Of a stretch of 64,000 nucleotides of DNA, positions 2,873 through 54,800 are shown one piece after another. A program made the position numbers and the translations under genes. A model generated the notes under the pieces. The model had not been told where the DNA came from and searched no databases. It saw nothing but the letters and a program-made list of their open reading frames with translations. The DNA comes from Amoebophrya sp. A120. Its lineage: Eukaryota; Protista; Dinoflagellata. Position 1 is the first letter of the stretch, and the number at the start of each line of letters is the position of its first letter. The stretch lies in contig CAJINV010000022.1 in assembly GCA_905178155.1 (NCBI GenBank), positions 124,001 through 188,000 on the forward strand. The letters are read 5' to 3'.

Positions 2873-5490
2873 AGGCATAGACGAGCTGTACGTTGTTTCC
2901 GGAAAGGCTAGAGTGGTTGCGACTTAAACTACACAAAAAATTCGCGAAGTGCAGTGCACCTCGACCTCCCTCGTAGCAGATCTCTTATCGTTTCGCAACA
3001 TCAACATCCTGATGTCCCTGGAACTGAAATTAAGCGCTTAGCACGTTTATTGTAGCTTGTCCATCTGGGAGGTCTGAGAACTGTGCTTTGTTTATGTAAC
3101 TCAATCAATTCGATCACTCTGATCCGCTTTTCCACGACGGGCGACTCTGGTTTACCAGGCCATTTCGGTGTCATCAATGAATCTCGAAAGAACTTGATTT
3201 GTCAAAAAAAATTTTCATCGTGAAGGTCTCCTTGTAAAACTGCTTCCAGAAAAAAACGGTTCCCCAGCATCCAGACTTGTATTGTAGCAGTAGCAGAGCA
3301 AATTATTTACTTAGATTTACTGAAAGTATTGTAAAAGAAGCAGAGCTGCAAGTTAAAAAAGCTTTCGAGAACTACTCCATTCTGAACTACTTGATGACCT
3401 CTTCATGTAAGATTTTAGCTTTGATCTCTTTGTTATCCCACCCTGTCTCGCTTTCGAAACGATGAATGTACTAGAAACAAACCACAGAGAAAAACAGTCC
3501 CTTCCGGTGGCGCGAAATTCTCAACGTCGATTTCACTCTTACAGGCAATTAAATTTTCCGGGGTTCCTTTGTTCGCCAAAGACGAAGATGGTCGACGATC
3601 ATTGACATAGCATTTCCGTGCGAGGTCAAAAGCTGGCTGATGTTTAAATCTGTTCTTTTCCAGCGTCAGAGTTTGTCTTCAGAAATGAAAAGGCCGAGTG
3701 ATTCATAACAGTATTTTCCGGGAGGTCGTAAAAATACCCTGCCTCCTTGAGCGTGATGGATTTGCGTGTGCTCTATGATGCTGAGTAGATAAAAAAAAAA
3801 TATTGTGAGCGGATCACTGAGAAGTTGGAGCAGCTACATGTACGTGACGTTGCAGCACGGTGTAGTGGCGCTTTGAGATTGAGAAATGAATCATAAGCAT
3901 CAACGATTATTACACTAACGCATGGTAGCCAATTAATTTTACGTAGCTATAATGAATCTGGTTGTCAAGAAGAAGAACAAGATGGGGCCGGGCGTTCGCG
4001 ACTCCGTAGCGTTGTTGCTGGCAGCATGTCCTGGATTTTCTGCCGCCGGCGCGCGCACGGTGGGGGTCGGGCCCTGAGGGCGGGCGCCGCCCGGCGTTCG
4101 GCCTTTCGTTTTCGTTTGCTTGGTTCTTGTCCGTCGAGCTGCACTCCGCGGGCCTTGCTTGGTCCTACCCGTCGACGCGGCACACAGGCGAAGCTTCGGA
4201 GGAGCATGCGGCGGGCGGCCGGGTCCTAGATGGTGCAGCCAGCCTTGGAAGCGGGTGCGTTCGCAATGCTGGCCGACGCTTCAGCGCAGGTTCGGAAAAT
4301 TCACTGAATGCGCGACCCATAGACGCAATGCCCTTAAAAACTCTGCTGCGCAGGCGCCCTCCGTGCAGCCGTCTAGCACTTCGGGGAGCTTGGGAAAAAA
4401 GTGCGCCGGCACCTATCAGAACGCGCAGGGCGGAGGGGCTCCCTCAGGCTCGAGCCCCACCGCCCTCAACAACGTGTCGCATCTGCCGAGCTTTGTGAAG
4501 TATGGGGGGCCCTATGGGAACATGCAAAGCGGAAGGTCGTCCAGCTCGACCGCCTTCCAGAACCTGGCCAATTCGGCCGTGGGGCCTGCGTCCAGCTCCA
4601 GCAGGCTGGGGCGCGCTGTGGCAGCCAGTTCGGCGATCTGGATGGATCTTTGACAGCAGAACAAGGGCGCGCGCCGCTTCAATCACGCGCCCGCGTGGCG
4701 CCCCCCCCCCCTCCGGGCGAGAGAGTTGCGCGCCCCGCCGCGCGCATTGGCTTGGTTAGCTTTGACCTAGGGGGCCGGCCCTCGTTTCGGGTTGGCCGGC
4801 TCGCTGGTTTGGCAGAGGCAGCGCTGCCGCTGTCCGAAGGTGCTTGCAGCCACTGCCGCCCCCCTCTTGATTTGGTTCCCAGCCTGACGCCCGCTACCAT
4901 GGCCCCGGCCCGCGCGAGGCGTTTGGGCTCAGTCTGCGTGCCTGCCGCGCCCGCGGGGGCGGACGGGGGCAGTCGGACCGACGCGCCGTCTGGTGCAGCA
5001 ATGTATGTCGCAATGGGGGGCGTGGATCCTGCGATAGTACCGACCCGCAGCGCCGGCCGCACGCGGCAGTGCAACTGCGTACCCGTTTGGCGTAGGCAGG
5101 GCATGGCGACACTATCGCCAGGCGTGATTTGGGCCTTGTCCACTCTCGGCCGAGCCTGTCTGTTTGCAGTCCGATTTGAAAGTCTAGTGTCCCGCCGAGC
5201 CTGTCTGTTTGCAGTCCGATTGGGTCGCCGGACGGCGATTGCGATGTTCTTGCACGAGTAACGAAATCACGAGCACACGTCGTAATGAGTGCCTGAGGAC
5301 GAGGTTGTGTGGAGCGACGGCGACAACTCACTGTCCGACTTTGTATTCTCCCTGCGGTTCTTGCGAGTGCGACGTCGCCAGGCAATATCACGTATAAAGT
5401 GTTTCATTATAACGCAGTGGGTATTTCGTTTTCTACGCGCTCATCGTCATCCGGCGCAAGTCTGCTCTAAATTTTTGAAAGACACCAGAA

Positions 5491-8400
5491 ATGGTCGACC
5501 TTCTCACCGCCACCGGCGCGGTGGTGGGTTCCACCCTGCTGGGCGGCGCGGGGTCCCTGTGGGAATACAACCAGGGCATCTGGCAGTTCGACAAGGCGCA
5601 GCGGCAGAACCAGGTCCACCAGCTGCAGAACATGCGGTGCACGCAGGCCGGTATGTTCCGCGAAGACATCCGAGATCTCTTCGGTTTAACCATCGCGAAA
5701 ATGGACAGCTACTTGACCGTGAACACACTGCAATATGCCTTGCAAAAGTATCATCCTAGTAGAAACGCGCATGACGAATTTGCTCAGCATGACAAATGGA
5801 AACTGTCATGCAGATTTAGCTTGGAAAGGAGATTTGTCTTGCATGATTGCGATTCACACGAGTGCGATGCTTTTGCAATGGATATACAACTCGGGTTCGC
5901 GATCAACCTCTTCTACGACAACGAGTTGTTCAAAGTCGCCCCTTATGTATTGCAAAAATGTCTGGGTCTGGAAGAATGCAACTTGTGATGCTATTTTTGG
6001 AATCCAAAAAAGTCTGTATTGCATGAGCAGCAAGAGTTTTTTTGCTCCGCGGAGAGGGGATTTCTCATGCGGGATAGGCATCAAGATGCCCGCAAAGAAT
6101 TTGTGATGCTGGGGCATACATCACAGACGTCACGGGTCATGCAAAATGTGCATGACAAACCTTGCCATCTCTCAGACCCAGACATTTTTGCATTTCATAC
6201 CCCGACCTGGATTTTCGCCCTTTACGCCCTGTCCGTCGGAGCGTCGGTTTTGTTCTTCGTGCTCTCTATGTGGTACTCGGTTTACGCCTCGATTGCCGCC
6301 CAGTCCTGCACGGTCCGGTGCTTGACGCAAGCGCTCCGCGTTCCGATTCCCCGGGTGGAAGAGTACGCGCACGCGCGGGCGTATGCGACAGACTACGAAT
6401 CCGAGGTGGCGACGGCGTTTCGGCTGCCGTTTCTGCAGAAGCACCGGGCGGGGAGGAGGAAGCCGCTGTTGCATATCCAGGAAAAAACACCCATCCCCAT
6501 CCAATTTTTCGTGCAAAACATGCACCATAAAATCCACTACTTGCCATGCAAATAATGGATGGGGATGGGTGTTTTTTCCTGGATATTGCAGGTCTTCACA
6601 GATATGGTGTTTGGAGGGGGAAAAGATCAAGATGGTGAAAGTCAAAACGGAAGTAGTAAAGCTACGAATTCCACCCAGCAGCACGTCAAAACCGGAGACG
6701 GAACATCAAATGGTAAAAATGGAAAAAATAGTACCATGACAAGTAGATTTAAAAACCTCTTGTCGCCAAAATCTACCCGTTCTACTTCAAAACCACCGGC
6801 AGAGGGGGACCGGTTTGTCCTTCAGTCCCAACTCTCCATACCCCAACTGTGCGCTTCGGACGCGGGGTTCGCACGGGCGGTGGAAGTGGACAAAGAGATT
6901 CTGGGACAAGAGGAAAGTGAGGATGACGACGATAGAGATTCTGACGCCGACCTCCTCGAAGACTCGCCGGTGTCGTCCCCAAATGACCAAAATCGACGTC
7001 CCGATCATCTCACGAAAGACGAAGACGGCGGCCCGGCAAAGATCGCAGTGAGTGAAAGGCCGTTTCAACAGCAAGGGATGGTGAACAATAAAGCGACAAG
7101 ATTCGAGACCACCGAGGGTCATGACAACTCTTCAGATATTAACCACCAGAAGATGAAGACCAAATCTCTACAACTTCGCCGGAGCAACACGACCAAGCGA
7201 ATCCAGAATCGGAATAATAGTAATTTCCACTTTCACTACTTCGACGAGTTCCAAGACCGGTGGCGCGGCTTCGACACGTTAGCGCGAATCTTGATGGGGA
7301 TGGGAACGTATATCCAATGCAAAAGCAAGCATCGTACAACTCGTACTAATTGCAGTGCAGCATGACAGATCTAGCTTCTTAGCTAGTTTAGCATATACAA
7401 ATTGATTCACCTTTTCCTTCTGTGAAAATTGAAATTCGTATATGCTATTTCTACTAGTACTAGCTAGGTAGTACAATGCTTTTCCAATGCATAACGTATC
7501 ACTTACTACAATCAACCGTGTACTACGCGTTAGGTTGGGTGGTTTTCTACAAAAACGAGTATTTGGGCGGATTGATCTACATGGTGTTGCTTACCACGGT
7601 GCAATACTTGTTAACGAAGCTGGAACTGTATTTGAGAAAGTGGGAGGAAGTGAAAATGTTTCTGCTCATCGTCGTTCCACCGGCCTTGAGTTTCCTCATC
7701 GTCATTCTCGCCCACAACGACAATGCGGCGAACAGCACCAATAGTAACCGGGACAGCAAGGAAATTTCCGATGCGGAAAAGTATCTAACCCCGCTCGTGT
7801 TTCTCGCACATTTGATGTACTACAAGGAGCTACTGTGGCTGTCTCCCGCGTTCGGATCGCCCTCGACGAACAATTTTATCAACTGCAAATAAAGTATCGT
7901 ACGTAGTAGTAATTGCAATACAAATTATCTCAGCGTGACAAATGGAATTTGTCATGCTGTTTTGCCTTGGGATGGGGATTTGTAATGCATAACTGCAATT
8001 AGTACGAGTGCGATACTTTTTGCACAGGATAAATTTCCGCGCGACGCAATTCACGGAATTTCTGACCAGCTCGGCGTCGACGTTAGTGAAGGAAAAACAG
8101 ACCACTTTGGATTTGTTTGATAAAAGCGAGGAGATGCTGTTACACGAGATTGTTGAGGAAGATCCGGACGAGATGACGGCTTCTAAACAAGGTGGACGCA
8201 GCAAGAGCCCGCTCACAATGGGCGGGCTGGGAAGCCGCGGTCATTCTGGGTCCTCTGAGGTGCTCGGTGACGGAACAATTGCGGGTGGGAATACAAGTGG
8301 TATTGGCAGTAGTTCTAGAAACTTTGTTGACCAGCAGGCTGTGGGCCTCCACGGTGAAAACAGTAGAGCAAAGGGAGTTACCTTCCAGGAGGAGTCCTCC

Positions 8401-11954: not shown

Positions 11955-12736
11955 ACAAACTTAGCTTGATGGTAAAACAGCTCCGCCTCCGTCAGTTCTA
12001 GGTGCCAGACGAACTATGTTGATCTGGCCACACGGCAGAGCCAGAGGTGTTTTTACTTTGCGTTCTCTTAAATGTCTTGACGATCAAATGAGGAACAGAA
12101 GAAAACGAACTAGTTGCGTTCTAGGATGAAGATTTGGATTCGATCGTGTCTAAAGTTCCAGATAAAAATCGTTGTCAAGCGAGATCAGCTTCAGCCATCG
12201 TCTGCTCCCTTCATTTTTGGTGGTGGAACTACAACAACAAAAACAAATTGAAATGTGATTTTGAAGGACAGATGAACAATGCTAAAGGTCCTCGCCCTTT
12301 GTCGCAGCAGGAGATCTGATCTAGTTCTTACAATGACAAGACTGAAGAAAGATCCGCCCTGTTGAAGGTCTCTCTCGACGGGGGGCCAGGAGATCTTTTG
12401 CGCAATCAGTCGTCTATCTTGCCCCGCGACGTTCACTTCTGAAGGAGTGTTTCATATGATTATGAGGAAACTCAAGCTACAACGACTCTAGTTTACCCTT
12501 ACGAAAACAATTCGCGGCAATTGAAGATGCACCCTCGCAGGCTTAAACTCGTATACTTAGCGGAAAGTTACCAATGACAACTTTTTCGGCGACGACATTT
12601 GAAAACTACGAGCAGAAAAAGTGAATTGTGAGATAAGCTTCATCTCCTTGTCTATCACTGCATCACACGACACGCTACTTCTACTCATCTCCATCCCACT
12701 TTAGTAGAGTTACATCCCTCGACCGCCGGAACAAAA

Positions 12737-13771
12737 ATGCCGCAAGCCCAAGACGTTTTCTTTGCCGGCCGGTCCGACAAGAAGAAGCCGATGCAGAAGC
12801 AAGCCTGCCATGCAGAAACAGCTACAGAAGTGGACGAAGCTACGACTCAACAAACCGACAAGGGCATCAACGCGACAGAGCAAGTGGATGAACCAAAAGC
12901 GAAAGTCCCCACAACTTCCATCTTCGGATCATCTGGCACCAGCAAAAAGAACACGACAACATCATCTTCAGAACGAGCTGACGAGAAGCCAGGAAACGAA
13001 CTCAACAACGTAGGCGCGGGGCTATTGAAATTAGCAGCAGAATTTAACAACGGTGAAGATAGCAGCAGCGAGGACGAAGAAGATCCCGACGGCGAAGATG
13101 ATAGTGAGGAAGAGGATGTTGACGACTCAGAAGAAGAAGACTGCTCCGACGACGATGAAGAAGAAGAAGAAGACAACGTGGAGGAGCTTCTGAAACAGCT
13201 TACCAACGACGAGAAGAAGCAACAGGGGCAGGACCTGCTGAAGCAGAAAGATTTCGAAAATGCTTTGGTTTTCCTCGAGGACATGGAAGAAAGTGCGCAA
13301 AGCGTTTTGGTGTTGTTGCAGATTTTGTCTTGCTACTTCGGTATCGAGGAGCAGGCGAAAAAAGATGAGGAGCTCGAGCCTTTGGGGGAAGAAGATTGGC
13401 AGGACGTGGTGAATTACAGTGAGCGGATCATCGAGACTACTAGTACTACAAGCAGTATGAAAATCAAGCCCGCAACCCCGAAGCAACTGGTGAAAGCTTT
13501 TTTCTACCTGGGGAGTGCGCACTCCGCTTTGGAAGATTTCGAAAATGCGGTGGAAATTCTGCAGAAGGCGCTGAAACAGGACAAGGTCGCGAATGGGGAG
13601 TTGTTGGCCCCGTTGATCCAAGTGGAACTGACGAAGGCGAAGAAACAGCTGGACCAAATGCTGCGAGTGAAAAAGAAGGAATTTTTCAAGACAGAAGAGG
13701 AAAAGCGGAAATTGGAACGAAGGAAAATCAGCGGGAAGAAAGCCTTTAACCCACACTGCCTGAAGCACTGA
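12737..13771 (+). CDS. Intronless TPR-repeat protein with acidic tract (co-chaperone-like TPR)
   Basis: 344-aa ORF; D/E tract; TPR-like EKKQQGQDLLKQKDFENAL and KAFFYLGSAHSALEDFENAVEILQKALKQD. Confidence 0.8.
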   Translation: MPQAQDVFFAGRSDKKKPMQKQACHAETATEVDEATTQQTDKGINATEQVDEPKAKVPTTSIFGSSGTSKKNTTTSSSERADEKPGNELNNVGAGLLKLAAEFNNGEDSSSEDEEDPDGEDDSEEEDVDDSEEEDCSDDDEEEEEDNVEELLKQLTNDEKKQQGQDLLKQKDFENALVFLEDMEESAQSVLVLLQILSCYFGIEEQAKKDEELEPLGEEDWQDVVNYSERIIETTSTTSSMKIKPATPKQLVKAFFYLGSAHSALEDFENAVEILQKALKQDKVANGELLAPLIQVELTKAKKQLDQMLRVKKKEFFKTEEEKRKLERRKISGKKAFNPHCLKH

Positions 13772-14216
13772 TTTGGAAAATTTTTTTTTCTCGGGGGGTC
13801 AGAAAAAGAAAAAGTAGACGGCTACAAGGGAGTTGTCCAACACCACCCCCGCGGTTTCTTTCTTGACAATGACTTCTAGAGAAGATCACGCACCTACCAT
13901 TTGGCTCAGGTTCTCGCATCGAAAAAGATAAAGAAAAAGCGTGTAGCAGTACGGTGGGGCAAATTATGTCCGTGCTGTTGCTGTTGGCAACTACGCACAG
14001 GTTCGACGCGCCGTTTGATGTGTTCTCCAGAATAGCGTTAGCGCTTAAGGACGTACTAGCATGGGTATTACCGATCATTCTGAAGATGATCTAGCATTCG
14101 CTCAAGAAGAACTATCTTTTAAAAGAGAGCTGAACACCACGAGCAGATCCCGAGCTGATTGATCCATTTGGCTTTCAATAGAAAGGATTGGATCCCACGT
14201 ATTTAACGGAAGACCC

Positions 14217-15604
14217 ACCGCCTCCGAGATGATCTGCTCCACGTCGGCTATAGTACGATCTGCGCAGATATCGAAAGAAAAAGTGTTGACGTTACGGTTT
14301 TAAGTTTTTTGGAAAAAAAAAATTTTGGGTGTATGCTGGAGGTATGTTTTTGGTTTGTAAGTCGACCCATTCCCGCTATTCGTTCTCGCGGGACTGCGAC
14401 GAAGCTCGCTTGGTTTGACCTAGCTAGTGCACAAAATATGACGGCGTAGGACTTCGGCGACCGGGGCCGCCCCCTGCCGTGCCTTCTCCTCGCCGCCGGC
14501 TCTTAGATCCGGGCCAGAACGCTCAAACCTCGAACCGTGGCTAAACCTCGGACGTGTGGACCTATGAGCTTGCATCTAGATGGCGTTTCCGCCAGTTCAG
14601 CTCTGTGCGGCTGTGCAAGTTTCCATCTCGGACCTTTTGGCGCCTTTTGTCAAATTTTCTCCATGACTGAAGAAAAGGTGGCACTTTCGAGGATGAGGGA
14701 AATGGGCAAACTTTGGGTACCAAAATGCCCAAAATTTGCAGGCACCCCAAAAACCGTCAACACCTCATCTAGACACTACGGTATGGTCGATCGGGTCTTC
14801 CAGAAGCCTGCTTTTTTGCATGAAATCGACCAAAAAACCGTCAACACCTCATCTAGCCAGCACGCTATGCTCGATTTGCCTGCTCAGAAGGTGCGCTCCC
14901 GTGCCCGCACCGGTTTGAGTGAAGGGAAATGGATCATAGCGTGCTGTCTAGATGAGGCGTTGACGGTTTTTGTGGGATCTGCATTTTTTGGCCTCGAAAT
15001 GGCGTCAAATCATTGATTTTTTCCTCGGATTTTTCCAATTCCCCAAAAAACCGTCAACATCATATCTGGACAGCATGCTAAGGTCCATTTTCCCTCAATA
15101 AAACAGGTCCATCTCCGGCGTCGATCGTTGCGACGCGTTGGTGGGCGGGTCTTGTCAGCAGTGCCGGGGCCCTGGCCCACCGGCTTACAGCCATCATGGC
15201 TCTTGAGCCCGGACAGGGATTGGGCAGCCATTTCAGGGCTTGAAGGGGCGCAATGTTGTGGCGGGGCCTCATAGTTTTCGCACCGTGTGCACTAGCTTCC
15301 TCTCCCAGAGTTTTACCACTTTAGAGCCCCGCAGGGGCAAAGAATGAGGCTGCGCGGCGGCGAGAAAAAAAAAAATTAAAATGATGGTGCTCAGTACCCA
15401 CAAAAATTTTTTTTTCCAAAAACCCGAAAACCGTAACGTCAACACTTTTTCTTATGATAGCAGAGGAGGTTGTTCATCTCCAAGTGCAACAAGTTGCACG
15501 AAAACCCTACCGCCTCCGAGATGATCTGCTCCACGTCGGCTATAGTACGATCTGCGCCACGGAGGTTGTTCATCTGCAAGTGCAACAAGTTGCACGAAAA
15601 CCTA
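14217..15604. repeat. 96-bp tandem repeat (about 2 units) interrupted by a TIR element
   Basis: ACCGCCTCCGAGATGATCTGCTCCACGTCGGCTATAGTACGATCTGCGC at 14217 and ~15509; GGAGGTTGTTCATCT..AAGTGCAACAAGTTGCACGAAAA at 15465 and 15561. Confidence 0.85.
14269..15459. mobile_element. 1.19-kb non-autonomous TIR element (family G), intergenic
   Basis: TSD GCAGA/GCAGA; ~65-bp imperfect TIR TATCGAAAGAAAAAGTGTTGACGTTACGGTTTT; four internal AAAACCGTCAACA..CAT-type repeats, one inverted. Confidence 0.9.
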
Positions 15605-16122
15605 GTGAAAAAATGACAAACGGAAGTAGAAGGGACTACACTAACTACACATTACACAAGCTTGGTCGTGCGCGGAAGCCTGGTCGTGCACGGTACTGAA
15701 GTACCGGCACAATAATTCGACCGGGTCGTCGTGAAGATGTAGCTGACGATCTAGAAAACTGCATGGCTGCTAGAAAAAAGTAGTCGCAGTTTGTTTATTT
15801 AGAACCACGTGCGTAATTTCAATTGAAACTCGAAAAAATAAACTCCGATGTGAAGAATCCCAGAGCGATCTTGCTTTGCTAAATGCCTTTGCCTCTGATC
15901 AACATCATGCTCTTCGACTTCGATTATCGTACTTATTCAGGGCTCTCCAACAAATACTATACACGTTTTTGCTACTATTGACATCTGTTTTTCTCGTAGT
16001 AGAATTTGTTAGGTCAACATTTATTTTGTACAATAATATTTTTTCTATATTTTTATTTACAGCTTTTCAAAATTGTATAATTTCATCCCACTTCACTACC
16101 ACGAAACACTAGACAAAAAAAA

Positions 16123-18678
16123 ATGCTTTTCACGGGCAACAGGAAACAAGGAGGCAAAGTGATGCTTCTCGTCACGAAAGCATTGCTTTACTCTTGCACG
16201 AGCAGCAGCCTGTGTGCGGGGGCCGCGATGTTGCAGTCGGGAACGGGACAGGGGGAGGTCACGAGTCCTGGTCTGGTCGACAAGACGCCTTCTACTACAA
16301 CAGCATTGGTTCTTCCTACTAGAGAGTCTGGAGCGGAGGCTCTTGCTACTACGGACCAGGCCACACAGATGAAACTGCGAGAACTTTTGAGAGACGGTGA
16401 AAGACGTGACGCGCAAAGGAGGGAAGAACGACGAAGAATGGAGGAGAAAGTGCCCCACGAAGTGCAACTACGGCACGAAAAAAAAGCGTTGGTGGTCGTG
16501 CTGTGCATCAAGACTCTTCTGATATTATAACTACAACCTATGTAAACCTTTACCTTCTATTTAAACTTGTATCGTGCTATAAATAAATGCAGCTTATCTG
16601 CTGGGGCTGGTACTCACTGGTAACCGTAACCGGCGCAGATCTCCATGTAGTTGAAAATCAGTTAGCGCAACAACATCGAAGCTTTTTTTCCTTTCATAGA
16701 GGGGTGGTCCCTGTCGATGTGACAAGAGGCGCAAGCAGGAATGGAGGAACGCGAAAGTCGCGTGCAAGGACCGTATCAAGAGGAACCGCCCTGCTCTTCT
16801 CTCGGCCATTATGGCCGTCGTCGCTATCCTCGCGGTAGGACAACAGCAGTGGCCCACAGGATTCGACAGTTCGAAGCTGTTGAACTTCGATTTTCAATCG
16901 CTGCGTGAAGAAGCAGGCCGGAAGATTGCTCAACAGAAATCTATTTGGATGAAATCGGCCTTGGAGCAGGACCACGACGAGGACGGCGCAGGCGAAGTAG
17001 TACTGCGACTCCATCCCAGGAGGGGAACGCCGGTCGACGAGAGGGACTTCATGATGATCAGGCACCAGGTATCCTGAGTGAAGATGTCCCCACACCAGAG
17101 TCAAGATGGGAGATCTGCTAGACAAATCAGCCAGCTTTGGTTGTTTCGCATGACAAGTTTGTCCGCGTAGTGTAATCCTGCTTAGGTAGTTCAGCAGCAT
17201 CACTGATCTAGCTGATCATGCTGATTATAGCATGACAGATTCCAAAACACGAGGGAGTAGAAAACGCCTCTCATGGGGCTCGGCATGAGAAACTTTTTTG
17301 GCATGCAGATTTGCATCACAACTATGGGGTGGGGACGTTTTTACATAGGATACCAGGAACTAGTTTCCCTTTTTACCGGTCCGAACAGTGAGCACGAATG
17401 GAAAAAATTGGCTCAACAGAATACTCCGAACGCCTTTCCTATGGTAGTGTCAGGATCGAAATCGACAATGTTGAAATACAAATAATTTGTGATGCATAAA
17501 ATGGAGTAGCTTTCAACTGGCGCATGACAAATTTGGCTAGAACCGAATTCCAGTTTGTAGTGCTGTTTGGGTAAGAGAGACGCCTTTTGTCATGCTACTT
17601 TAGCAGCCCTATTTCTACTCTTCAACAGGCTTACAATCTGCCTCCCTTGCCTACGCTGCAAGACAGGTATTTTGTGGGTTGCATTTTATGCATCACAAAC
17701 CATTTCAACTTTGAGGATTTCAATCCTGACACTTCCATATTCCCTTCGGCGCAGTTTTTCTTCGACTTTGCCCAATCCGCAATGAAGGCCGCCAGCCATC
17801 TGGATCGTCACATGGGGCCAGTGCGGGGCCACGGGTTGTGGTCCAAAAAGGACCAGGAAATTATGAGCAACGTTGAAAAAATCGGACGTATTTTTGCGGA
17901 GAACCTGAAGCTGCTAAAGGAAAGGAAAGAACTGCTCGAAGCAGAACCGGTGCGGACGAAAACGTGGCAAGTCGTACCTCGAGCGGCACAGCATGGTAAA
18001 AATAAGCTCTTCGCCTTGAGAGAAATCGACACGGAGCTGAAGAAGTTTTTTGACCAACTTCGGCAAATCCTGATTTCAGACCCAGAGCTTCAGCGTCTCC
18101 TCTTCCGGACCGCGATTGACATCGTGAACGACCCGACGATCTCAAATGAGCATCGCGCGGAGCTGCTGCAGCGCCGACATGAACAAACCGGAGAGGAAAA
18201 CAGCCGCGGACTTTTCTTTTCCAGCGTCGCCAGAAACTTTCTAGAGCGTTGCCCGGTCCTCGTGGAGGAGCAAGAGAATCCAACCGCCTTCCGCGACGAC
18301 CTGCAGACGATTGGAAAAGGAGGTCAACGCTTGTTTAGAACTTTCGGTAACGCCAGCAACGGCCGTGCTATAAAAGGACTCCGTAATACAAACGCCAGCA
18401 ATGTGGTGCAGCAGGCCGAGGCAAAAATGATCGCGTGCGAGCCTGTAACTCCCTTAGATTTGCCGGAAAAGATAATGGACGAGTTTTATCTTTCGACGCA
18501 AGAAGGCCACATGCGTGCCGCACCGGAGGACGATACAGCAGAGGGGGCGCAGCAAGTACCAGCGATGCTCGATTCTGACAAGTGGAGTTACACGCGTTGG
18601 GCCAGAAATTCACTGTTAACTATCGTCGCGGCAGGAAGTACCGGATTGGCGGGCGTGCGGTTGATGTCCTCACAGTGA
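16123..18678 (+). CDS. Hypothetical protein with possible N-terminal signal/TM segments, 4 exons
   Basis: ORF chain 16123/16700/17353/17740. First intron probably ~16462-16699 (GT-AG, donor uncertain); two introners restore frame. Confidence 0.65.
17070..17352. mobile_element. Introner family F (TSD supplies GT-AG)
   Basis: TSD CCAGG/CCAGG; TATCCTGAGTGAAGATGTCCCCAC...GTGGGGACGTTTTTACATAGGATA. Confidence 0.9.
17440..17739. mobile_element. Introner family D
   Basis: TSD TTTCC/TTCCC; TATGGTAGTGTCAGGAT...ATCCTGACACTTCCATA; gives NAFPSAQF. Confidence 0.9.
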
Positions 18679-36812: not shown

Positions 36813-39800
36813 ATGATGACGGGGCAGCAAATAAAAGAACTTCCGAAGGCCGCGACGGTCACAAAAAACAAGGCACGACCTTTCTTTCCGCAAGTATCAT
36901 ATTTGTTTTTCCTGCTGGCAGGAGACCTCTTTCAACATCCGACTCCAGAGGACCATACGGGAGGTGGTGGACCACAGGTCGCTCCTCGGGTGAAGAAAAG
37001 GTGCCATGGCAGCAGCTCTCGTGCAGCGAGCGCAGGGAAAATCAAAGACGGGCGAGGCAGAAGCGATAGTTGTGTGTTTGCCGCTTCTCATGTCGGCGAC
37101 GATGAAGAGAGCTTCAGCAGCAATTGTGGTGTTATTTCTGGACACGAACAAGCAGGCAGTAGAGCTAGCACGTGCAGCAAAGCTACTCCGACACGACCTT
37201 CTTCCACCAGCAGCTCATGGCGCAGCAGCTGCACCTCGGGCGGCTACCCGATAGAGGAAAACATCGCCGACGCCGACGGACCAACACGATGCAGTACGGA
37301 TGAAGATCAAGACAGCAACTACGACTTCTGCATATTGGGGAGTGCGACCACCCGTGACGCTCGCGCTGCACACGGCCGGAACCATTTTTCAGGGACGCCT
37401 TCAATTCTTGAATTACCTTCCGAAAGAACGACATCTCACAACACCAGGCGGTCCCAATTATTCGCAGCTGGCTCAATCCTCGGTGTGAACGCGGCGGGTA
37501 CTACTACTTCCGGTGAAGTTCCTATGGACGACGTAGTAGAGGGGTTTTCTGACAACTCCGATCATGAACTACATATGAACTGCAAAAGTATCGTACTCGT
37601 ATAAATGCATATACAAATTTCCTCAGCATGAGAAATAAAATTTGTAATGCTGATTTACCTTAAGAAAAAGATTTGCAATGCATGACTGCAATACGAGTGC
37701 GATAGTTTTGCACAGGATACTACAAGACGAGGAGGGATTTTGTTCCGACGTTTCCGTTGATGATTGCTCCGTCCTATCAAACAAAAAAGTGTTAACCTTA
37801 ACGGTTTTCATGGATTGCAAATATGCATGACAAATTTTGCTTAGCTGCATGCATGCTATGCACGACAAATTTGGGCACGTTTTGTGGTGCGTTACTGCAT
37901 CACAAATTCCGTTCACGTTAACACTTTTTCCTGTGACACGTCCCTTCTTTCTTAAACAGTCCAGCTTCGGCCAGTCCTCCCGATTATTTCGAAGAACAAC
38001 CGAAAAATGGCGATAGTGAAACAGAAAACGAAGATTTTTCCGATACGTTGGAACTGAATGAGCGAGAAGGTGGAGTCGCAGCTTATACAGTGCAGCCTTT
38101 ATCATCATCACGCCGAGCTGCAGGAACGATCACTGGGAGTGGGTTGGTCCTTGATCATGGCGAAATAATTACGCGGCCTTACAAAAACCCGACAAAGGGA
38201 CAAGTGGATCGTCGTCGTACCTTTGGTGCAAAATCTTCTGAGGTCGTGGATCCATCTGTGGGTTCTCCAGGCGAAGATTTCAGCACGACGACCATCGCCA
38301 CGCCCGACGGGATCCAAAGTGGCGAACGCTCGCCGACACCGGGGGACTCGTGTCCAAGTGACTTTTCCACGACGTTGCCGTTCTCTTCTCCGGGTGGGTA
38401 TGCAATAGAAATTTCTGTTATTATATATTTTTATCCCGCAGCACCGGTTGGTACAAAACCAAAGTGCATGACAGGTAGATTTCAATAGATGAAACTTGGT
38501 CTTGGACGTACGGTAGGTAGATACGCACGGAGATAAAAGATTGGCATGTAAGAACATAAAAGTTTTGTTGTCGTACCGCGTGTGGTGCTATGGTAAATCA
38601 ACATTTACTCTTGATACTGATTCGTCGTCGGCAACGCGGGGTGGAGGGGCCGCAGGAGCCACAGTTTCCGATCTTCGCAGACCCTTAGAAGCAAAAAAAT
38701 TTTTTACGACCACGAAGGCCCCTAGTTGTCGTGCCAGTGTTTTATCTTCCTCTGAGGACGAAGCGGGATGCCAAGACGAGTTAACTACAACCGACGCAGG
38801 ACCACGGCCCGCGGTCCCGTCGTCGGGATTTCAAGGACGACAAGAATTTTTACCAAATCCTGCAGCGACAGCGGCCGCCCCAAGGCGAACGCGCACCTCG
38901 AGAAGTAACAAAATAGATGCGGCTCCTTCGAGGAGAAAATCGCCGAGAAAACAAGTGGGAGAAGACAACAAGCCCGGTAGAAGTACTACGGAAATGGTTC
39001 GGAGAGAGTTGCTGCCCGTGTTTGATGATGTCGCGGGAAAAGATGAGCAAGGCGATGATCTTCTTCAACACCAGGAAGAGAACAATCATCAAGAGGCTAC
39101 AACTACTACCAGGGCGGCGAAAGACGCAGCTGTTCTACTATTCCACCAGCAGCAGAAGTGCTCGCGAAAACCGGGACCGAAGGTAGTAGTCCCGCAAGAA
39201 TCTTCTTCTCGCAGAGCCGTGCCGGCTGAGAAGGAAGTAGAGGAAGATGAAGTCACGAGCTTTCTGTGCTCAGACAGATTAGCAGAAAAGACGATCGCCG
39301 CGGAAATTAAACTTGTCATAGCGCAAGAGTTGTCAAGACATCAACCTTCTGACGGGCGGGCACAAGAACAACGCGCGGTAGATCCAGACTCACCGCAAGT
39401 GCAAAGCCGCTGGGTTCCGATTGTGGAAAATTACTTGATGAGCAAGAACGTTGCTGGCGGACGCGGAATGTTCCCGTCGTTCTCGTCGTCGCACTATGCA
39501 CCTTCCGTCAAGTTGCTGGCGATGCTGTTTCTTTTGCAGGTACTCGAGAGGACGTGGGGGGTGGAAGAGTCGATGGGGCAAATTGTCCGTTTCGATAACG
39601 CTCTCTACACGGATGCTTTGACGGTAGACACCTGGACTGCACTATCCTGTGCAAAAGTGTCGTACTCGTAGTAAAAGTAATTGCATTTTTGCATTACAAA
39701 TCTCTTTCTCAAGGTAAATCAGTATTACAAATTTCATTTGTAATGCTGGGCTAATGCAATTTATACGTAGTATCATGTTTTTGCATTGCATATGCACAAA

Positions 39801-45800: not shown

Positions 45801-48800
45801 TTGGAGCAGGACGTGATTGGACTATGTGGTCCACCCGGTGGTGACGCAGTGCCGACTGGAGAAGATCATGTTTCCGGGCGTCAGCATGAGGAGATGTTTC
45901 ATCGGGGGACACCAGATTTCGCCCAAACACCAGATCTGGCACGTAATGTAGGAATACAACTCACTTTTGAAGACACGACCACTGCTCTTGGCCAGCAGCA
46001 AGACCAACAGCAGCACTTCAACATCCCGCGGAGTACTAGAGGCGACAAGGAACTACAAGTTGATCATCATCGTGTTCGGCCGCAAGAACGAGCTAAACCA
46101 ACCTCGATAAAGAAGTGCCCGCTGCCGTCGTCCGGTACAAGCTCCCGTTCTAATTCCCCCGGCGGTGCACCGACGGGACACGATTGGACGCCCTCTACTC
46201 AAGCACCAGGGCATATGGAGCTGTCAGGATTGAAATTGACAAAGTTGAACAAAAATTTGTGATGCATATATAAAGTCGAAACCAGTTGTAAGCCAAAGCC
46301 CAATATCCAAGCGGTGCATGATGACAAAATTCGGCACCGTCTAAATCCAGTTTGTCATGCTGTTGAGGGACAGAAGGCGTCTTTTGTCGTGCTGCTTTAG
46401 CAGCTCTATCACAGTCCCCAAACAGGCTGGCAGTCGGCCTCACTTGTCATCCCCGCAAGAGAGGCGCTTCATGCCTTGCAGTTTCTGCATGAGAAATTAT
46501 TTCGACTTTGTCGCTTTCAGTCCTGACGCTTCCATAGGGCAGACTCCCGGGCCGCGAACTGGCGCGCCCAGCCCGCAGCCAAGTCCGCGGGCGGGGAGAT
46601 CGTTTTCACCTGGTCCTGCTGCCCAGCACCGGAGAGTATCTTCCGAAGATGAGGCCGCGGGTAGAAGTCGGGCTAGCAGTAGAGATGATCATGGCCGCGG
46701 GTCAGATGTTGATCATGATGGTAGTTCATCTGGTGATGATTCTGATCCCGGCGGGGACCACGGCGGCCCAAGATCGGCGGCTGCGCGGAGAGCAGCTGAT
46801 TGGGCTCGAGTGCGTAGTTATGAATTGCAAAAGTATCGCATTCGTATAAATGCATTACAAATTTCCTCAGCATGAGAAATGAAATTTGTATATGCGGATT
46901 TGCTTTCAGAAAAAAATTTGTAATGCATTTATCGCAATAGCAATACGAGTACGATACTTTTGCACAGGATAGTAGTATGGACGTCGACCCTATGGACGTT
47001 GACCCGATGATGACAGCACGAAGAAGGATAAGAACAAGTAGAACTCCAGAGGAGCGGACTAGTGCGACTCCTGGTACTTCTGCCACCACAGGTGTGGCGA
47101 TTCTTGGAACTTCGTCGTCTTCCAGCGTAGTTCCTGTTCAACGGCATCAATCAGAACGGGAAGTAGTAGTTCATCCTCTTGGCACTGTCGAAAGGAGAAA
47201 GTTGGCCTCTCCTCGTCCTAGGATTCCCGCCGTGGCGTCGGGAGCTGAAGCGCATAGAGGTGGTCCTGAAGATGTGCTACAACACATAGAATCTCCGTCT
47301 GCCGCGCACTCGACTCAAGCCTCGCCGACGTCGCAATGCTACGGCGGTACGCCGGATCCCACACCGTATCCGAATTCGAAATTCAAATGTATCGGTTAGC
47401 CGCCAGTTGTACTTGTACCCTTCTGAGGCTGATGTTGATGATGTTGGACTTAGTAAATGCACCGGGAATTTTCTGACAAAAAAATATTTTGTGCTGCAGC
47501 TAGAAGATGAGTTGTGTGAAGCAGGTCGCAGATTTTGCAATCGTATCTATATCCATGGTCTGTCCTCTACTGCATGACCATAAATGAGAACAACAATGTC
47601 GAAGTTTAAAAATATCCTGGAACGGCTCAGATTCAGAAGGCGAAACGGCGGTGATAGATATGTTGTTTTTCGTCCTCTTCCATACACTGCAGACTGATTG
47701 GACGTTTCATGTAGATGAGGGGTCGGAGGAGGAGGTACAAGCTGATGTAGAGGCAGCACATATGAACGTGCAAAATGCAAAAGGGGTCAACCTAAACAGA
47801 GAAGTTTTTTTGCTGTTTGGGCAAAAAAACTTTTCATTTTCAGCCGTATTTGCTCGCGCCAGGTGCCCCTTCACCGCGCAATATTGAATGCTGCGAACGT
47901 ATTAAGGTGCCCAAAAACGAATCTGGCTGCCGCGCTCTATCTAGGTTGTCGCAGGCTTTAGCTTTGCGCGGTGCTGCAGTTGAAGCGCTCCTAGAAGGTG
48001 TCTCAACAGGTGGCGCGCGAACCTATATAACGGCGCAACTGCTTGGGCGGTTGAGGTGACACACCTCCGCCGAGGCGCGCCAACTGTGTTTCTCAAGGAG
48101 CTGGCAGCTGGAGGCGCGCCAGCGTTTGCGTTTGCTAACACTCGAAAATCCTCTGCGCAGAGACCGCGCCGCCCAGTCTGCCGCAAAACAACTCCAGAAA
48201 GCGCCCGCGCGAAATTGCTCCTTGAGAGTGTCCAGGATCATCTCCGGACGCAATACAGGCCGCATCCGCATGTGGGAGGGCGCTTAGCCTGGACAGGGGC
48301 TCACGCCGATCACGGAGCTTGCGCGACACATTGGAGCCGACATTTCTCGTCTCCTTTCCTTCTTCGCCGAATGCCGCTCGATGAGAAGAAACTTCTGACT
48401 TTGGGGATTTTTTTGCCGGATTTTGCCAAAACTTCGCCAAAAACCCGGACTTTGCCGAAGTTTTGGCAAAATCCGGCAAAAAAATCGCCAAAGTGAGAAG
48501 ATTCTTCTCATTGAGCGGCATTCGGCGAACGGGGAAGGGAGAGGTGAGACCTCTGCTACATTGTGCCGGGCAAGCTCCGGGATGTCCGAACCCCGGGCCA
48601 GGATTAACCCTTTTCCGCATGTGGATGCACTCTGGCTCGCGTCCGAGAATAGCTCTGGACATTTCCCCGGCAACCCGCGGAGCAACTCCGCAAGGGAGCT
48701 CGCTGGAGTTGCTTTGCGGTAGATTGGGTTGGCCGGTCTCTGCGAGAGGGCGCTTCGAAAATTAGATCAGGAGGCTGATGCAACTGCAGCGGCCATCACG

Positions 48801-51800
48801 CTTGACTTGCTTGAGAGGCACAGCTGGCGCGCCACGAGTGAGATGCGTCATCCCAACCGCCCAGCGAGTTGCGTCTTTAAGTTGCCGCACCACACGCAGA
48901 TGCGCGCTGCGGGATCGCGCCAGCTGTGGCACTGCGCAAGGCCTGCGACCACCTCTAACACGACAATCAGTCTTGTTTTTGCGCAACCTAACACGCGCAA
49001 CTCGATCCACTATCGCGCGGAGAAGGGGCAGCTGGTGCCGGCAAATACGCCCGAAAATGAAAAGTTTTTTTGCCCAAACAACGAAAAAACTTCTCTGTTT
49101 AGGTTGACCCCTTTTGCATTTTGCACGTTCATAGCAGCACATGATGACAACTACAGAGCGGAAACAAGACCTGCTCCTGTAACGGGAGCACTACAGCCCC
49201 CTGATTATAGAGACGCTCACGCAAGCAGCAGCAGCGGTGCAGTGTGTGAAAAAGATCCATCCCGCGTTTCGACCACTGCGCCGCACCAAGAAGCTGCTGT
49301 CCAACAACGGAGCAGAGCCAGCGTTGTAGCTGCAGAGCAACCTCATTTGGTGACGCAGGTTGTAGCGAGCCGACCACAAACTCTTGACCCGCCACCGCCT
49401 CCGGCGGCACCGGCACCGCACCTCCAGGGAGAGCCCGGGGCTGTTGAACGTGTTGTTGCGCCCGCCCGGACAGTCGAACAGCGACAGCAGGACGCACGCG
49501 ACAGGCTGGAAACATTGGCGCAGGCGACGATTCCTGACTTTTTCCGTCTGTTAGAAGCCGCCGCCGCCGACGGCCTGATAACCCACGAGCAAAAGCAGTC
49601 ACGCGTGAAAGATTTAGAAGGAAGGCTAAAGCACGTTCGCACATGGCGGTCTCACCACGAAGACCCGGAGAAGCTAATGGTCCAAATTGCCAGGTTGAGG
49701 AGGCCGCCATCCTACATCCACGACATCCTGGACACCGAAGAAGATATTGGGCGAGGCGCGCTACTGCAAGTAAAATATTGGACGGGCTACATTGCATGGA
49801 AGCGCGGTCGCCCCCGCGGGCCCGACGTAGAGGACAGTGCGATCATCAGTCTGGGGCATGACATAGTGCTGCAGAACCAAATTTTGAACGTTCTGCGAGA
49901 CGAAGTGCCAGCAGTTGTGCCTCTGACGCACTCGGAGCGAGAATTTCGTCTTTTCTGGGACGAGCGACAGCATCATCTCGACCAGGGTCGATTTACCCCA
50001 GCGACAACTGACGACCAGCTCCGTCGGCAGCTAAGGCAGCTAATAGGTGGCTCTGAACTAGATGTTCAGAACATCCTCGCGGAGCACCTCAGGCGGCAAA
50101 GGGGCCTACAAGACAAACTGGTTCTCATTCTACTAGAGCGGCCAACCGCGCTACGTGTACTGGATGAAAGAGCAACAGAACAACCGATGTACATGAACGC
50201 CCTGCACGCCGTTCTGGAGCGTGACCTCGCAGCTCAAGCCGCAGCCGCGACACAGGAATCTACACAGGAGGAATCACAGGCCGCAGAAGAACAACCTTTG
50301 GTAACTACGCAGGTTGTGGCGGACCGACCGCAACAAACACCTGAGGACCCGCCACCCCCGTTGGGTGCACCAGCAGCGCCGCCCCAGGAACAACAATCGG
50401 GGGCAAGTGTTGTTTCCTCGGCGCCAGGCGGGCCGATGACGCCACAGTTCGGTGCAGCTGGGACATCAAGTGCAAGACAAGTAGGAGAACTCAATGCAGA
50501 ACCTCCTGAAGAGGAGCAACCTCCGCCTCCTTTTGAGGCCCTAGAAAACCGAGCGGCTCCTGGATTAGGGGAAGATGAGGTTGGGGCGTCGAGGTCCACC
50601 TCCACCACCCCCTACGACTTAGAGAGAGAGGAACGACGACAGCAGGAGGCACGCTCGAGGCTGCAGGAATTGATGCAGACGACCATACCTGGCTGTATCC
50701 GTCTGGCAGCAGCCGCCGCCACCGACGGCTTGATAGGTGACGAGCAAAAGCAGAACAGTGCGAAATATTTCGAAGACAGTCTCGCGATCGTTCGCAGATT
50801 TCATGAAGAGTTCGCAGACCACCTCCACCCGGAAGCGGACCCCCGAAGCAAGACCATCCGGGAGTTACTGGACCGGGAAGAACAGACGGTGCGAGACGGG
50901 GTGGTAGAGTTTATAAGAGTATGGACAGATCACATAGTGGAGTGGCGACGCCGCGTACGCGAGGCAAAAATGCACGCCTCTGTTGTACAGCCCGCTGCAG
51001 GAGGTTCCTCTTCTGAGACAGGAGCAAGAACTGCAATTGTGGAACTTCTACCTGTGGACGAGGACAGCACGAGTCTAGGGCACGACGTCATGCTGCAGAA
51101 CCAACTTTTGGAGATTCTGCGATACCAAGTGCCACCATCTCGGTATCGCAACATGCGGTCAGAGCAAGAATTCCGTCGGCTCTGGGACGAGCGAGAGCAG
51201 CTTTGCGACCAGGGTCGAGCCACCCGCGCGATAGATGAGACCAATCTGCGTAGGCAGCTGCGAGCTCCAGTAGATGAACACAACACTGCAGAACACCTCA
51301 GGCGGCAAAGGGACCTACAAGACCAAATTTCTTTCCTTCTGCTGCACCGGCCACATGCGCTGGTCGTACTGGCGACAAGAGGAACAGAAATACCGACGTA
51401 CATGAACACCGTGGACGCCATTCTGGACCGACGTTGGCTCGCGGCCCAACGCGCAGGCACGACACAGGGATCCCAGGCCGCTGCTGCATCAGCGGCCGCC
51501 CCGTCGGCTGGCGGGATGCTGCTCTGCAGGAGAATCGTCCTCTTCTGCATCTTCAGTGCGAGCTCTGATGAAGACGAGGACGGCAAAGCAAAGCTGAAGA
51601 CGCAGTTGTCTGGCGCTCGTGCAATTGACATTGAAGTAGAAAAAAAAATAAAGATGGTAGAAAGCCTGCCCGTAGGTGAGGAAACAGCAACGAACTTGAT
51701 ACAGCAGATTAATCTCCGGGGGAGACAAATGCGGCATATTGATCTGGACCTCAGAAAGGATAAATATCAAAGACCCGGAGAAACTGTTGACACGTTTTTC

Positions 51801-54800
51801 TTTGGACTACTGGAAATCGGACGACTTGACGCCGAATATCAAAAGCTGCGGGACCTGGCTTCGAGCGAAAAATACAAGGTTTACATTTCCGACGACAACC
51901 TCGACGCCGACCCGCGGACGGTCACTGCTGAAGAAAATGGCATTGGCATTCACCCTGCTAACCTCGCTATGCCAGAAAAAAACCGTGTGAGTGTAAGTCT
52001 GTAGTGCGAAGTATGCAGGGGGCTGGGCGGACAGTTACACTTGTCATTCTGGCCAGCCATACACATACCAGCGCCCTCGCTTCATTCGTGTTCTCCTTCT
52101 CGCGTACTCACCGTGCATGAGAGGAATTCTCTGTCATGCAGAGCAGATAATAATTTGTCATGCTCATGTTGTTGATGTCTATGGCACGACCCCGAGGCAC
52201 CTATAAATGATACTACGATTTCTAGCACAGTGGTTTATTTTTTCTTGTATACTCGCGCAGGCCAGGTGTCTACTGATGTCGATGTGGATTGGAAAGGTTC
52301 TACCAACCGAGCAGGCGGGCGCAGGGTCAAGAACAAGAACTGGCGATTCATCTTCAAGCGCAGCAGGACCAACTGACGCATCAGCGACGGAAGATGATAT
52401 TAGAACCATCGGCAGCTGCTCAAGCGATGACGACGGACCGGATGACGACAGCACTGACGTCAGCACACCGGAATTGTTGAAAAAACAGATTATTCAACTG
52501 GGGAAAGAAATGCGGCTCGTTGATATGAAGATCGGCGACCTTGCGGCAGATGTGAACGAGAAACAGATGAGAAAGGTAGAAGAAAAAATTGAAGAGAGAA
52601 AAGATGGGACGAGATGGAGTCCGAACTATATGTGGAAGCTCGTGAAGGCACAAAGAGAGTTCTCAGTACAGCTATTGGAACTTGCAAAGCGCGACCGCAA
52701 GTACCAAAAGCTGCGGGACCTGGCTGCAAGCGGAACATACAACATTCCTGACGACGACCTCGACGATGACCCGCGGAAGTCTGATGCTTCGATATTTTCG
52801 CGGATTCATTTTCTCGCGAATGCGAGGGCCGCCTACGGGGAAGTGACCGGAATTGCCTCACGACCAACCGAGCAGGCGAGCGCAGAGTCAAGAACTGGCG
52901 CTTCCTCAACTGCAGCACCAGGACGGCCTGCCGCATCTTCAGCGACGAATGCAGCTGCTCCTGGAGCAGGGGAAGATGTTGAACTACGTGTAACGTCCAG
53001 CACGTCACCAGGCCCTACAGTCGAACAGAAACAACGACGGCAGAAGGCACGCGACAGGCTGGAAACATTGTCGCAGGCGACCATGCCGGACTTTATTCGT
53101 CTGGCAGAAGCCGCCGCTGCCGACGGCCTAATAACCACCGAGTATCAAATGCAAGTATATCTGGGTCGTCTGGATGAAACTTATGATGCAAACCAGGAAA
53201 AAATAACGGACGCGCTGTAAAAATATTACGCGGCCATGCATGACATAGGTTTTGAGCAGCTACGTGTTGCGTATTTCGCATGGCAGAATGCGCAGATTTT
53301 GCATGAGACAAGGACGATCTGTCAGTTTGCAGCTACGAATGACAGAGTTCCGAGTCATGTCAGAGTCAGACGAGCATGACAAAAATAAATCTTGCAATGT
53401 TCCAGACCCAGACATATTTGCAATTGATACTGAGCAAAAGCGCACGTTTGTGGAGTATTTGGAACAACAACTCGCGAACTTTCGCAGAGCGCATCAAGTG
53501 TGGGAATTCTCGGAAGCAACACTGTCACGAGCCGATTTCGAGGACATCCTGGACCAGGAAGAAAAGGCTGTGCGGCGGACGGTGCTACAGGGGATAAAAC
53601 AATGGACGGAGCTCATAATGGTGCAGCGAATCAAGATCCACCAAGCACACGAAGCAGCACTTCCGCGCTCTTCTCTCGCACAGCCCGCACCAGCAGGGGC
53701 TTCCTCTTCTGATACAGGAGCAACTGCAGTTGCGGCACCGGCGGCGGAGGACAGTGCGAGTCTGGGGCATGACGTAGTGCTGCAGAATCAAATTTTGAAC
53801 GTTCTGCGAGAACAAGTGCCACCAGCTCTGCCTCTAACGCAGTCGGAGCAAGAATTCCGTCGTCTCTGGGACGAGCGAGAGCGTCTTTGCGACCAGGGCC
53901 GAGCAAGCCGTGCGACAACTGATAACGACATGCGGAGCTGGCAACTAACAGGCTTACTAGAAGATGATCACAGCACGACCGCGCCGGATGAACAACACCT
54001 CAGGCGACAGAGAGACCTGCAAGACCAGATGGTGTTGCGTCTACTATGGCGGCCAAATGCCCTGGATGTACTGGACGAAAGATCAACAACAGAGCTACCG
54101 ATGTGCCAGCACACCCTGTTTGCCATTCGGGTCCGTTCCCCCGCGGCCGTGCAGCAGGTGCAGGCACAGCAGCCTGCAAGCGCAGGATCAAGAGCGGGCG
54201 CTTCCTCGAGTGCAGCAGGACCACCTGCCGCATCAGCGACGGAGGCTAGTAGGAAGACTCGCCCAGCACAGGAGGAAGAGGAAGACGTAAATCTACTTCA
54301 CCAAGGAAGTGGTGGTGAATCTAGTAGTACCTTCTCTTCACCGCCACGCCAGGGTAGACAACTACCACCGGGGGATCCTGTTTCTTCGGCGCCAGATCAT
54401 GCTGGGCCGATGACGCCACAGTTCGGTCGTGCAGCGGGGGAAAGAAGAACAAGCGCAAGTTCATCTTCACAGCCTCGAGATGAACTACCGCCTCATGATG
54501 CTTCGTCGGGGGCACGGGCAGCAGGCGGTGGTACAATTTCTGCCGGAGGAATTGAGGCCGGTGCCGGAGATGAAAACACTGCAGCAGGAGCTCCTGCTGC
54601 TCTGGGTCTGGTTCCGTCGTCCTCAACTACTGCTCCTGGTGCTTCGGGTCCAGAACCAGAAGAACTACCTCAGCCTGGTCGACTACGATCACTGGTTCTA
54701 GGACCACCGAAAGTGGACCAGCATGATGTCGACCACCAGGGCCAGCAAATAAAGCAGCACCGCGGAGGCTTGTATTCGTTGGCTGGGCCGATGACGCCAC

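Follow-up and report, generated by a model that had tools for sequence, protein, structure and literature searches.

A 1.19-kb gene-less element between genes of Amoebophrya sp. A120 shares its ends with a 160-bp introner family and is probably its non-autonomous sister

The window analysed here, a stretch of 64,000 nucleotides from Amoebophrya sp. A120 (contig CAJINV010000022.1, positions 124,001 to 188,000; 51% GC, with its long reading frames on the plus strand), contains, at window positions 14269-15459, a non-coding element of 1191 bp that is bounded by terminal inverted repeats (TIRs). This 1.19-kb element and a family of 160-bp introners have an end, not an interior, in common, and it is probable that both are non-autonomous passengers of a single inferred transposase. 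Because the mirror-image ends and the 5-base scar are alike in the two, one enzyme is likely to have moved both as DNA. The element is best read as a long, gene-less, non-autonomous sister of the introner, rather than as its parent.

The first-pass annotation had described an element at these positions with TIRs and a 5-bp target site duplication (TSD), GCAGA, and both features hold. The left TIR (14269-14333, plus strand) is 65 bp long, with its outer 33 bp common to the 160-bp family, and is mirrored by the right TIR (15395-15459, minus strand). The two ends agree at 31 of the 33 outer bases and are 87.7% identical across 65 bp, and their tips read TATCG and TATCA, placing them in the TAT..ATA class. 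Two plus-strand copies of GCAGA, at 14264-14268 and 15460-15464, directly abut the left and right ends. It is by these ends and this duplication, without a protein family or relative, that the element is delimited.

The insertion interrupts a 96-bp repeat that consists of two units only. Unit 1 is split into a left part (14215-14263) and a right part (15465-15506), and unit 2 (15507-15602; all on the plus strand) had been proposed in the first pass as a near-empty site. This is confirmed by the fit: when the element is excised together with 5 bases, the rejoined unit 1 is identical to unit 2 at 91 of 96 positions, and excision with any other number of bases from 0 to 10 leaves only 56-66 of 96. 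Of the five mismatches, three are in the duplicated 5-mer itself (GCAGA versus GCCAC), which makes this a near-empty rather than an identical site. The comparison is with a paralogous 96-bp unit, not with an allele, and the 5-bp duplication is directly demonstrated in this way for one long copy, that at 14269-15459. The 96-bp duplication corresponds to 32 codons, and across the empty site one frame per strand is open; neither of these two frames matches a Pfam family.

The reading frames bear out the intergenic placement proposed earlier, as the element starts 498 bp past the stop of the upstream frame and ends 664 bp ahead of the first ATG of the next. The upstream neighbour is a stop-to-stop frame (12632-13771, plus strand) in which a TPR repeat scores slightly below the Pfam cut-off (E 4e-6), and the downstream neighbour is a gene of no known family (16081-18678, plus strand) whose introners at 17070 and 17440 are spliced out. 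In run X5, presumed to be RNA, a contig joins exons over these 283- and 300-bp elements with skips of 288 and 305 bases, that is, the element plus 5, and it is for these two families only that splicing is demonstrated. Contigs from X5 cover 12540-13908, including the upstream frame, and the sequence from 15947 on. There is no X5 cover at 14083-14269 or 15579-15765 and no flank cover in runs X4 and X6, although contigs of this kind cannot show absence. Eight of twelve runs were aligned to the window; two of them, the raw RNA runs X10 and X11, yielded one read and none, and evidently do not contain the organism. At other long copies, contigs run uninterrupted from the flank through the end and into the interior, which suggests that these copies are present unspliced or as DNA.

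Several side observations concern the same neighbourhood. The upstream X5 contig ends (13908) within a short stretch, 13895-13910, which we take to resemble the spliced leader of dinoflagellates in its 3' portion; the resemblance is probably due to chance. A 235-base intron with CT..GG ends, at 16468-16702, is spliced in X5 and lies outside the catalogue of inverted-end elements described below. At 17070-17352, three DNA contigs of run X1 join the right end of the 283-bp family back to its left end, and these end-to-start joints are head-to-tail copies or circles. A further twelve contigs join the end of the 283-bp family to the start of the 17440 family, with a different spacer.

The partner of the 1.19-kb element is a 164-bp introner-type element of the same end type at 37775-37938, which has CGTCC on both sides (hairpin z -4.0). 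The end of the 1.19-kb element is identical to that of 37775 in 28 of 34 columns, with one gap, and not one of 20,000 shuffles attained the resulting score of 26.5, even when the first 14 bases were held constant. The 15-nt core AAAAAGTGTTRACST occurs four times in the 64 kb, against 0.06 expected, and all occurrences lie at the four ends of these two elements. Among the 62 ends of other window elements, the 37775 pair scores 26.5 and 24.5 and the remaining 60 score 19 or less. Given that the 37775 ends outscore the rest, that no shuffle attains their score and that the core is confined to four ends, the likeness exceeds the start common to all these elements, and the shared TIR noted in the first pass is real. 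The 37775-37938 element would itself be an intron, judging from the reading frame restored upon its removal with 5 bases: cutting out 37775-37938 and 37574-37719, with 5 bases each, leaves a 286-codon open frame.

A search pattern built on the four ends retrieved eight loci (L001-L008) in metagenome contigs. Loci L002-L008 (records JACKZZ01) hold nine copies of the 37775 short family, which are 76-91% identical to 37775. The 18 ends of these copies average 26.0, in comparison to an average of 16.3 and a maximum of 22.5 for 82 other ends. Of these 18, 11 had been selected by the search pattern itself; of the seven unselected ends, six score 24.5-26.0 and one scores 19. In ten short-family copies, the 5-bp duplication is exact in seven, retained at four of five bases in two and at three of five in one. 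The remaining locus, L001, was rejected as a chance match with one end only; the frame beside it is presumably nitrilase-like. Searches with the end patterns gave no match in viral contigs or genome contigs, and only short copies elsewhere; the 1.19-kb element matched nothing among plasmids. Two copies in L008 are unusual. The 160-bp family copy at 7881-8030 has one end resembling that of a 210-bp family, possibly through an exchange of ends between families, and the copy at 5424-5587 has an extra TAT between flank and end, with flanks that then match at four of five bases.

Beyond the ends, the long and short elements have nothing in common. At each end about 34 bases are alike and the similarity goes no further; in the interior none of the nine short copies resembles the 1.19-kb element, all nine local scores (17-24) falling within the shuffle maxima of 23-28. 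With about 34 end bases common and the interior unrelated, the short family is not a deletion product of the 1.19-kb element. Among 22 frames of at least 40 aa in the element, none exceeds the Pfam cut-off, and substituting 16 majority letters yields no frame that is usefully longer. No transposase domain was found in the 122 window frames of at least 120 aa and three shorter pieces, or in 62 frames of the related loci. Two candidate coding remnants were set aside. A Zn_ribbon_ISL3 match in a 64-aa minus-strand frame (E 0.0036, under the cut-off, in one of 55 queries) has no true relatives, its three protein hits being unrelated and repeat-inflated (two are SEA-domain proteins), and a 150-aa plus-strand frame has no protein relatives.

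In the first pass, the element had been offered as a candidate link to the parent transposon of the introners, a proposal that is not supported, given the lack of any interior match and of a transposase domain. The parent reading is also opposed by a colinear relative of the same size, record 9 of run X4, which aligns over 1000 bases with 358 letters for 357 and 90 for 89. The accompanying proposal, that the same system transposes at the DNA level outside genes, does stand apart from that link. Insertion as DNA outside a coding frame is well founded: the similarity of the ends is specific, several copies with different flanks exist, and a duplication of 5 bp is established by comparison with the near-empty unit. 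As expected of a non-autonomous TIR DNA transposon, the element has TIRs, a duplication seen against an empty site and dispersed copies, and has no transposase frame.

Evidence for dispersal comes from contigs of other sequencing runs. Contig depth is 197-261 on the element versus 42 on its flanks in run X2, and 98-131 versus 26-31 in X1; the two runs represent one sample, which may be the one the window comes from, and contig depth is a rough guide only. There are about five near-identical copies, together with single-depth relatives that are 82-86% alike. Among the loose ends listed for X2, those at 14267 (two contigs), 15459 (two) and 15460 (one) lead into other flanks. In addition, two 151-base pieces from a marine metagenome (X9) match the element at 99%. 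A left flank in X4 ends with CAGGA, the same five bases with which a loose right end in X2 starts; this may represent a second 5-bp duplication of the long element, the two runs not necessarily showing one copy. Among the joints listed, in DNA-type and RNA-type contigs, those of X4, X5 and X6 included, none skips the whole element as excision would.

Some of the related copies differ in detail. A variant long copy in X4 and X5, followed over 14269-15430, has 3-base insertions at 14427 and 15302 and a 10-11-base deletion near 15352. It is absent from the X1 and X2 columns, stops 29 bases before the right end and has near-identical flank sequence on both sides, as if it too lay within a duplication. 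Over 15386-15436, X2 and X6 contain a relative of the long element with one extra end base typical of the short family, that is, an intermediate end.

These copies bear on the possibility that the 1.19-kb element arose by internal deletion from an autonomous transposon that persists in this genome, has its ends and subterminal sequence in common with the element, and carries the transposase in longer copies. Intact ends and young copies (14 differences per 901 bases between the 14269-15459 copy and the collapsed contigs) are what such an origin would leave, and about 13% of 79 aligned contigs continue into unlike sequence. A published A120 introner family of 808-810 bp, family 38, also retains integrase-like similarity. 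However, the loose ends listed inside the element in X2 are short, at 19-40 letters, the nearly whole relative in X4 has equal spacing, and there is no coding remnant, the Zn_ribbon_ISL3 match having led to unrelated proteins only. A deleted copy is therefore regarded as unlikely.

The interior of the 1.19-kb element contains echoes of its own ends. Four repeats of about 50 bp, in the order forward, forward, reverse, forward, lie at 14746-14796 (R1, plus), 14830-14880 (R2, plus), 14923-14971 (R3, minus) and 15043-15093 (R4, plus). Each corresponds to the inner portion of the TIR with a 6-base gap and with the outer tip missing. Their cores, at 14749, 14833 and 15046 on the plus strand and 14959-14971 on the minus strand, number four against 0.14 expected, in agreement with the three direct and one inverted echoes first reported. 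R3 is the mirror image of R1 about the centre of the element (z 12), and further out there is a 12-bp perfect subterminal inverted pair (14422-14433, plus; 15286-15297, minus). About 25 bases common to all four repeats are absent from the ends. The pattern of internal repeats has no match in viral contigs or in the eight loci retrieved by the end pattern, and an Rfam match to mir-5984 (44 bits, cut-off 95) is the hairpin formed by R2 and R3. As the inner part of the end without its tip, R1-R4 are candidate extra binding sites for a transposase.

The same repeats might instead be leftovers of an element built from ends, either a fold-back that has decayed or end fragments nested in one another, and not binding sites at all. 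The R1/R3 mirror suits this origin, as does a weak similarity of the arms at element positions 71-330 (its score was reached by 3 of 200 shuffles). A true fold-back of 1373 bp with TAT..ATA ends exists at 47761, and relatives of the 1.19-kb element differ in the repeat cluster, with joints skipping 75 and 98 bases. The arms at element positions 201-460, on the other hand, are no more similar than shuffles, so that symmetry beyond the ends and the centre is unsupported and a whole-element fold-back for 14269-15459 was rejected, and the bases shared by R1-R4 are missing from the ends from which they would have come. We consider construction from ends improbable; it concerns the origin of the element and is compatible with movement in trans.

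The other inverted-end elements of the window place this pair in a wider system. A strict scan gave 39 inverted-end pairs, from which eight were dropped as the insides of two copies and 31 kept; with 47761-49133 added from a looser scan, the catalogue comprises two long elements and 30 short ones, the latter measuring 109-416 bp. Almost all begin with TAT[G/C], have a mirrored end and are flanked by a 5-bp direct repeat, and about eight end types can be distinguished. The catalogue for L002-L008 (60 rows, minus 12 for L004/L005 overlap duplicates and cross-copy pairs, plus two copies) adds 50 short elements to these 30. Across the resulting 80, the 5-bp duplication is exact in 63 and has no base preference, and 157 of 160 ends are TA and three are TG, the two classes that the catalogue permitted.

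A motif internal to the short elements, TGT[ACG]ATGC, is present in 29 of 30 in the window and 49 of 50 in L002-L008 (78 of 80), across end types, at a density of 12 sites per kb. It was derived from the short elements of the window; those of L002-L008 are additional members of these families and do not count as independent lineages. Neither long element (14269, 47761) contains the motif, against 14 sites expected at the rate of the short elements and fewer than one at background. It often lies 30-52 bases inside an end, facing inward at 67 of 160 ends and outward at 45 of 160, and this presence on either strand suggests a role at the DNA level rather than as a splice signal. The second long element, the fold-back at 47761-49133, has 517 of 707 arm columns identical, TAT..ATA ends and an exact 8-bp direct repeat, GCAGCACA; it lies within a coding frame that reopens on its removal with 8 or 5 bases. 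The long frames at 48723-55666 contain three diverged protein-block repeats of no known family.

Cut-and-paste movement by a DDE enzyme supplied in trans fits the long family-specific ends, the constant TAT tip, the exact 5-bp duplication in 63 of 80 elements and the lack of target preference. Such a transposase would bind the family-specific inner part of the end, cut at TAT..ATA and integrate at a 5-bp stagger without preference for any sequence. Short members inserted in exons would then be removed from RNA together with one copy of the duplication; the long member sits between genes. The arrangement resembles miniature inverted-repeat transposable elements (MITEs) and other non-autonomous TIR elements in its ends and duplication, its lack of genes, its several copies and its reliance on an enzyme in trans. 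It departs from MITEs in that the 1.19-kb element is longer than the short families found here, has a low copy number and contains a cluster of internal end-like repeats.

As for the identity of the enzyme, an integrase-like transposase in the neighbourhood of GingerRoot/IS3EU, Ginger2/TDD or IS481EU is moderately favoured, and a neighbourhood rather than a family is named because no candidate fits wholly. The comparison draws on the available portions of six papers (PMC7789003, PMC12130899, PMC10045372, PMC2836005, PMC6839031 and PMC11282704), and what follows is limited to those portions. GingerRoot/IS3EU elements are described as having termini that read TA..TA or, in a minority, TG..CA, a target without base specificity and rare longer duplications, and as having mostly 6-bp duplications, ends of 100-150 bp, lengths of 3.9-12.9 kb and a DDE frame (PMC6839031; PMC10045372). 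The TA..TA termini agree with the 157 TA and three TG among 160 ends and the single 8-bp duplication observed here, whereas the 5-bp duplication (in place of 6 bp), the 65-bp ends and the missing frame do not. TDD-4 and TDD-5 make 5-bp duplications, and Ginger ends read TGTNR (PMC2836005; PMC10045372), so that Ginger2/TDD agrees in its 4-5-bp duplication and differs from the TATCG and TATCA tips. The ends of IS481EU, TNT..AYA, accommodate TAT..ATA, but its duplications of about 4, 15 or 25 bp (PMC10045372) depart from the 5 bp found here in a search that ranged up to 10 bp.

A different possibility is that no dedicated transposase exists, and that these elements borrow the integrase of an LTR retrotransposon or are copied through RNA, as in the 'copy-paste' reading of Farhat et al. 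In the part of that study available to us, no transposase is reported in A120 and LTR retrotransposons are present (Farhat et al., 2021; PMC7789003). Moreover, a 5-bp duplication is also what most LTR elements produce, sequence similar to Copia and Gypsy occurs in family 38, and three of the 160 ends are TG. Yet the sharing is confined to long, family-specific inverted ends that recur in the interior of the element, as would suit a protein that reads DNA ends, and about eight such end types occur in the window. Self-comparison of the 1.19-kb element revealed neither a poly(A) tail nor a direct terminal repeat, and it lies outside coding frames. A borrowed integrase or RNA copying is accordingly very unlikely, and a trans-acting transposase that recognises the ends is preferred.

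The same portion of PMC7789003 states that family-specific inverted-repeat motifs were not detected and that general mobilisation by a transposase was ruled out, in an analysis of RNA-validated introns of 40-1000 bp. The elements of the window match the A120 introners described there in their TAT start, the run of A after about seven bases and direct repeats of 3-5 bp, and the window matches in its co-oriented genes and GC content. Unlike those introners, the 1.19-kb element is longer and lies outside coding frames, and one end type is specific to it and its short family. More recently, most A120 introners have been classed as TIR elements, one of them Ginger-like (Gozashti et al., 2025; PMC12130899, as far as available). 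This is family 38, entered in Dataset S2 as Ginger with '5-bp TSD, TA/TA Termini'. Like the 1.19-kb element, it combines TA..TA termini and a 5-bp duplication with inverted ends of about 50 bp, five copies and a size above that of common introners. It is, however, intronic, 808-810 bp long and equipped with Copia/Gypsy-like frames, a similarity that is lacking in the 1191 bp of the element described here. Family 103 of the same dataset, compared by description only, has a consensus of 1191 bp, equal in length to the 1.19-kb element; it has 27 intronic copies and a 16-bp end, and these differences in end length and copy number argue against identity. The end motifs were not found in the 12 of 14 supplementary files of PMC12130899 that this comparison covers. 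No published account of TGT[ACG]ATGC, or of a long element that lies between genes and partners an A120 introner, was found in the available parts of a literature that included few subscription papers, and figures S19-S25 of PMC7789003 may show the motif.

Amoebophrya A120 carries tens of thousands of non-canonical introns, and its genome paper, which found no transposase, doubted that one drove their spread. One tentative reading is that the introns are modular, with family-specific ends, recognised by an undescribed GingerRoot/IS3EU-like transposase lineage that makes 5-bp duplications, attached to the common TGT[ACG]ATGC module; in that case the 1.19-kb element would be the bare, non-intron form of one end type, and its ends a working hook for the transposase that eluded earlier studies. 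The gain over previous work is moderate, since in PMC12130899 most A120 introners are already assigned to the TIR elements, and one to a Ginger-like class. Nevertheless, an element that lies between genes with the end of an introner and a 5-bp TSD is direct evidence that such ends insert as DNA without being an intron. The ends of the 1.19-kb element offer a concrete probe for the enzyme, with the prediction that it would be an integrase-like DDE transposase acting on TAT..ATA termini with a 5-bp duplication.
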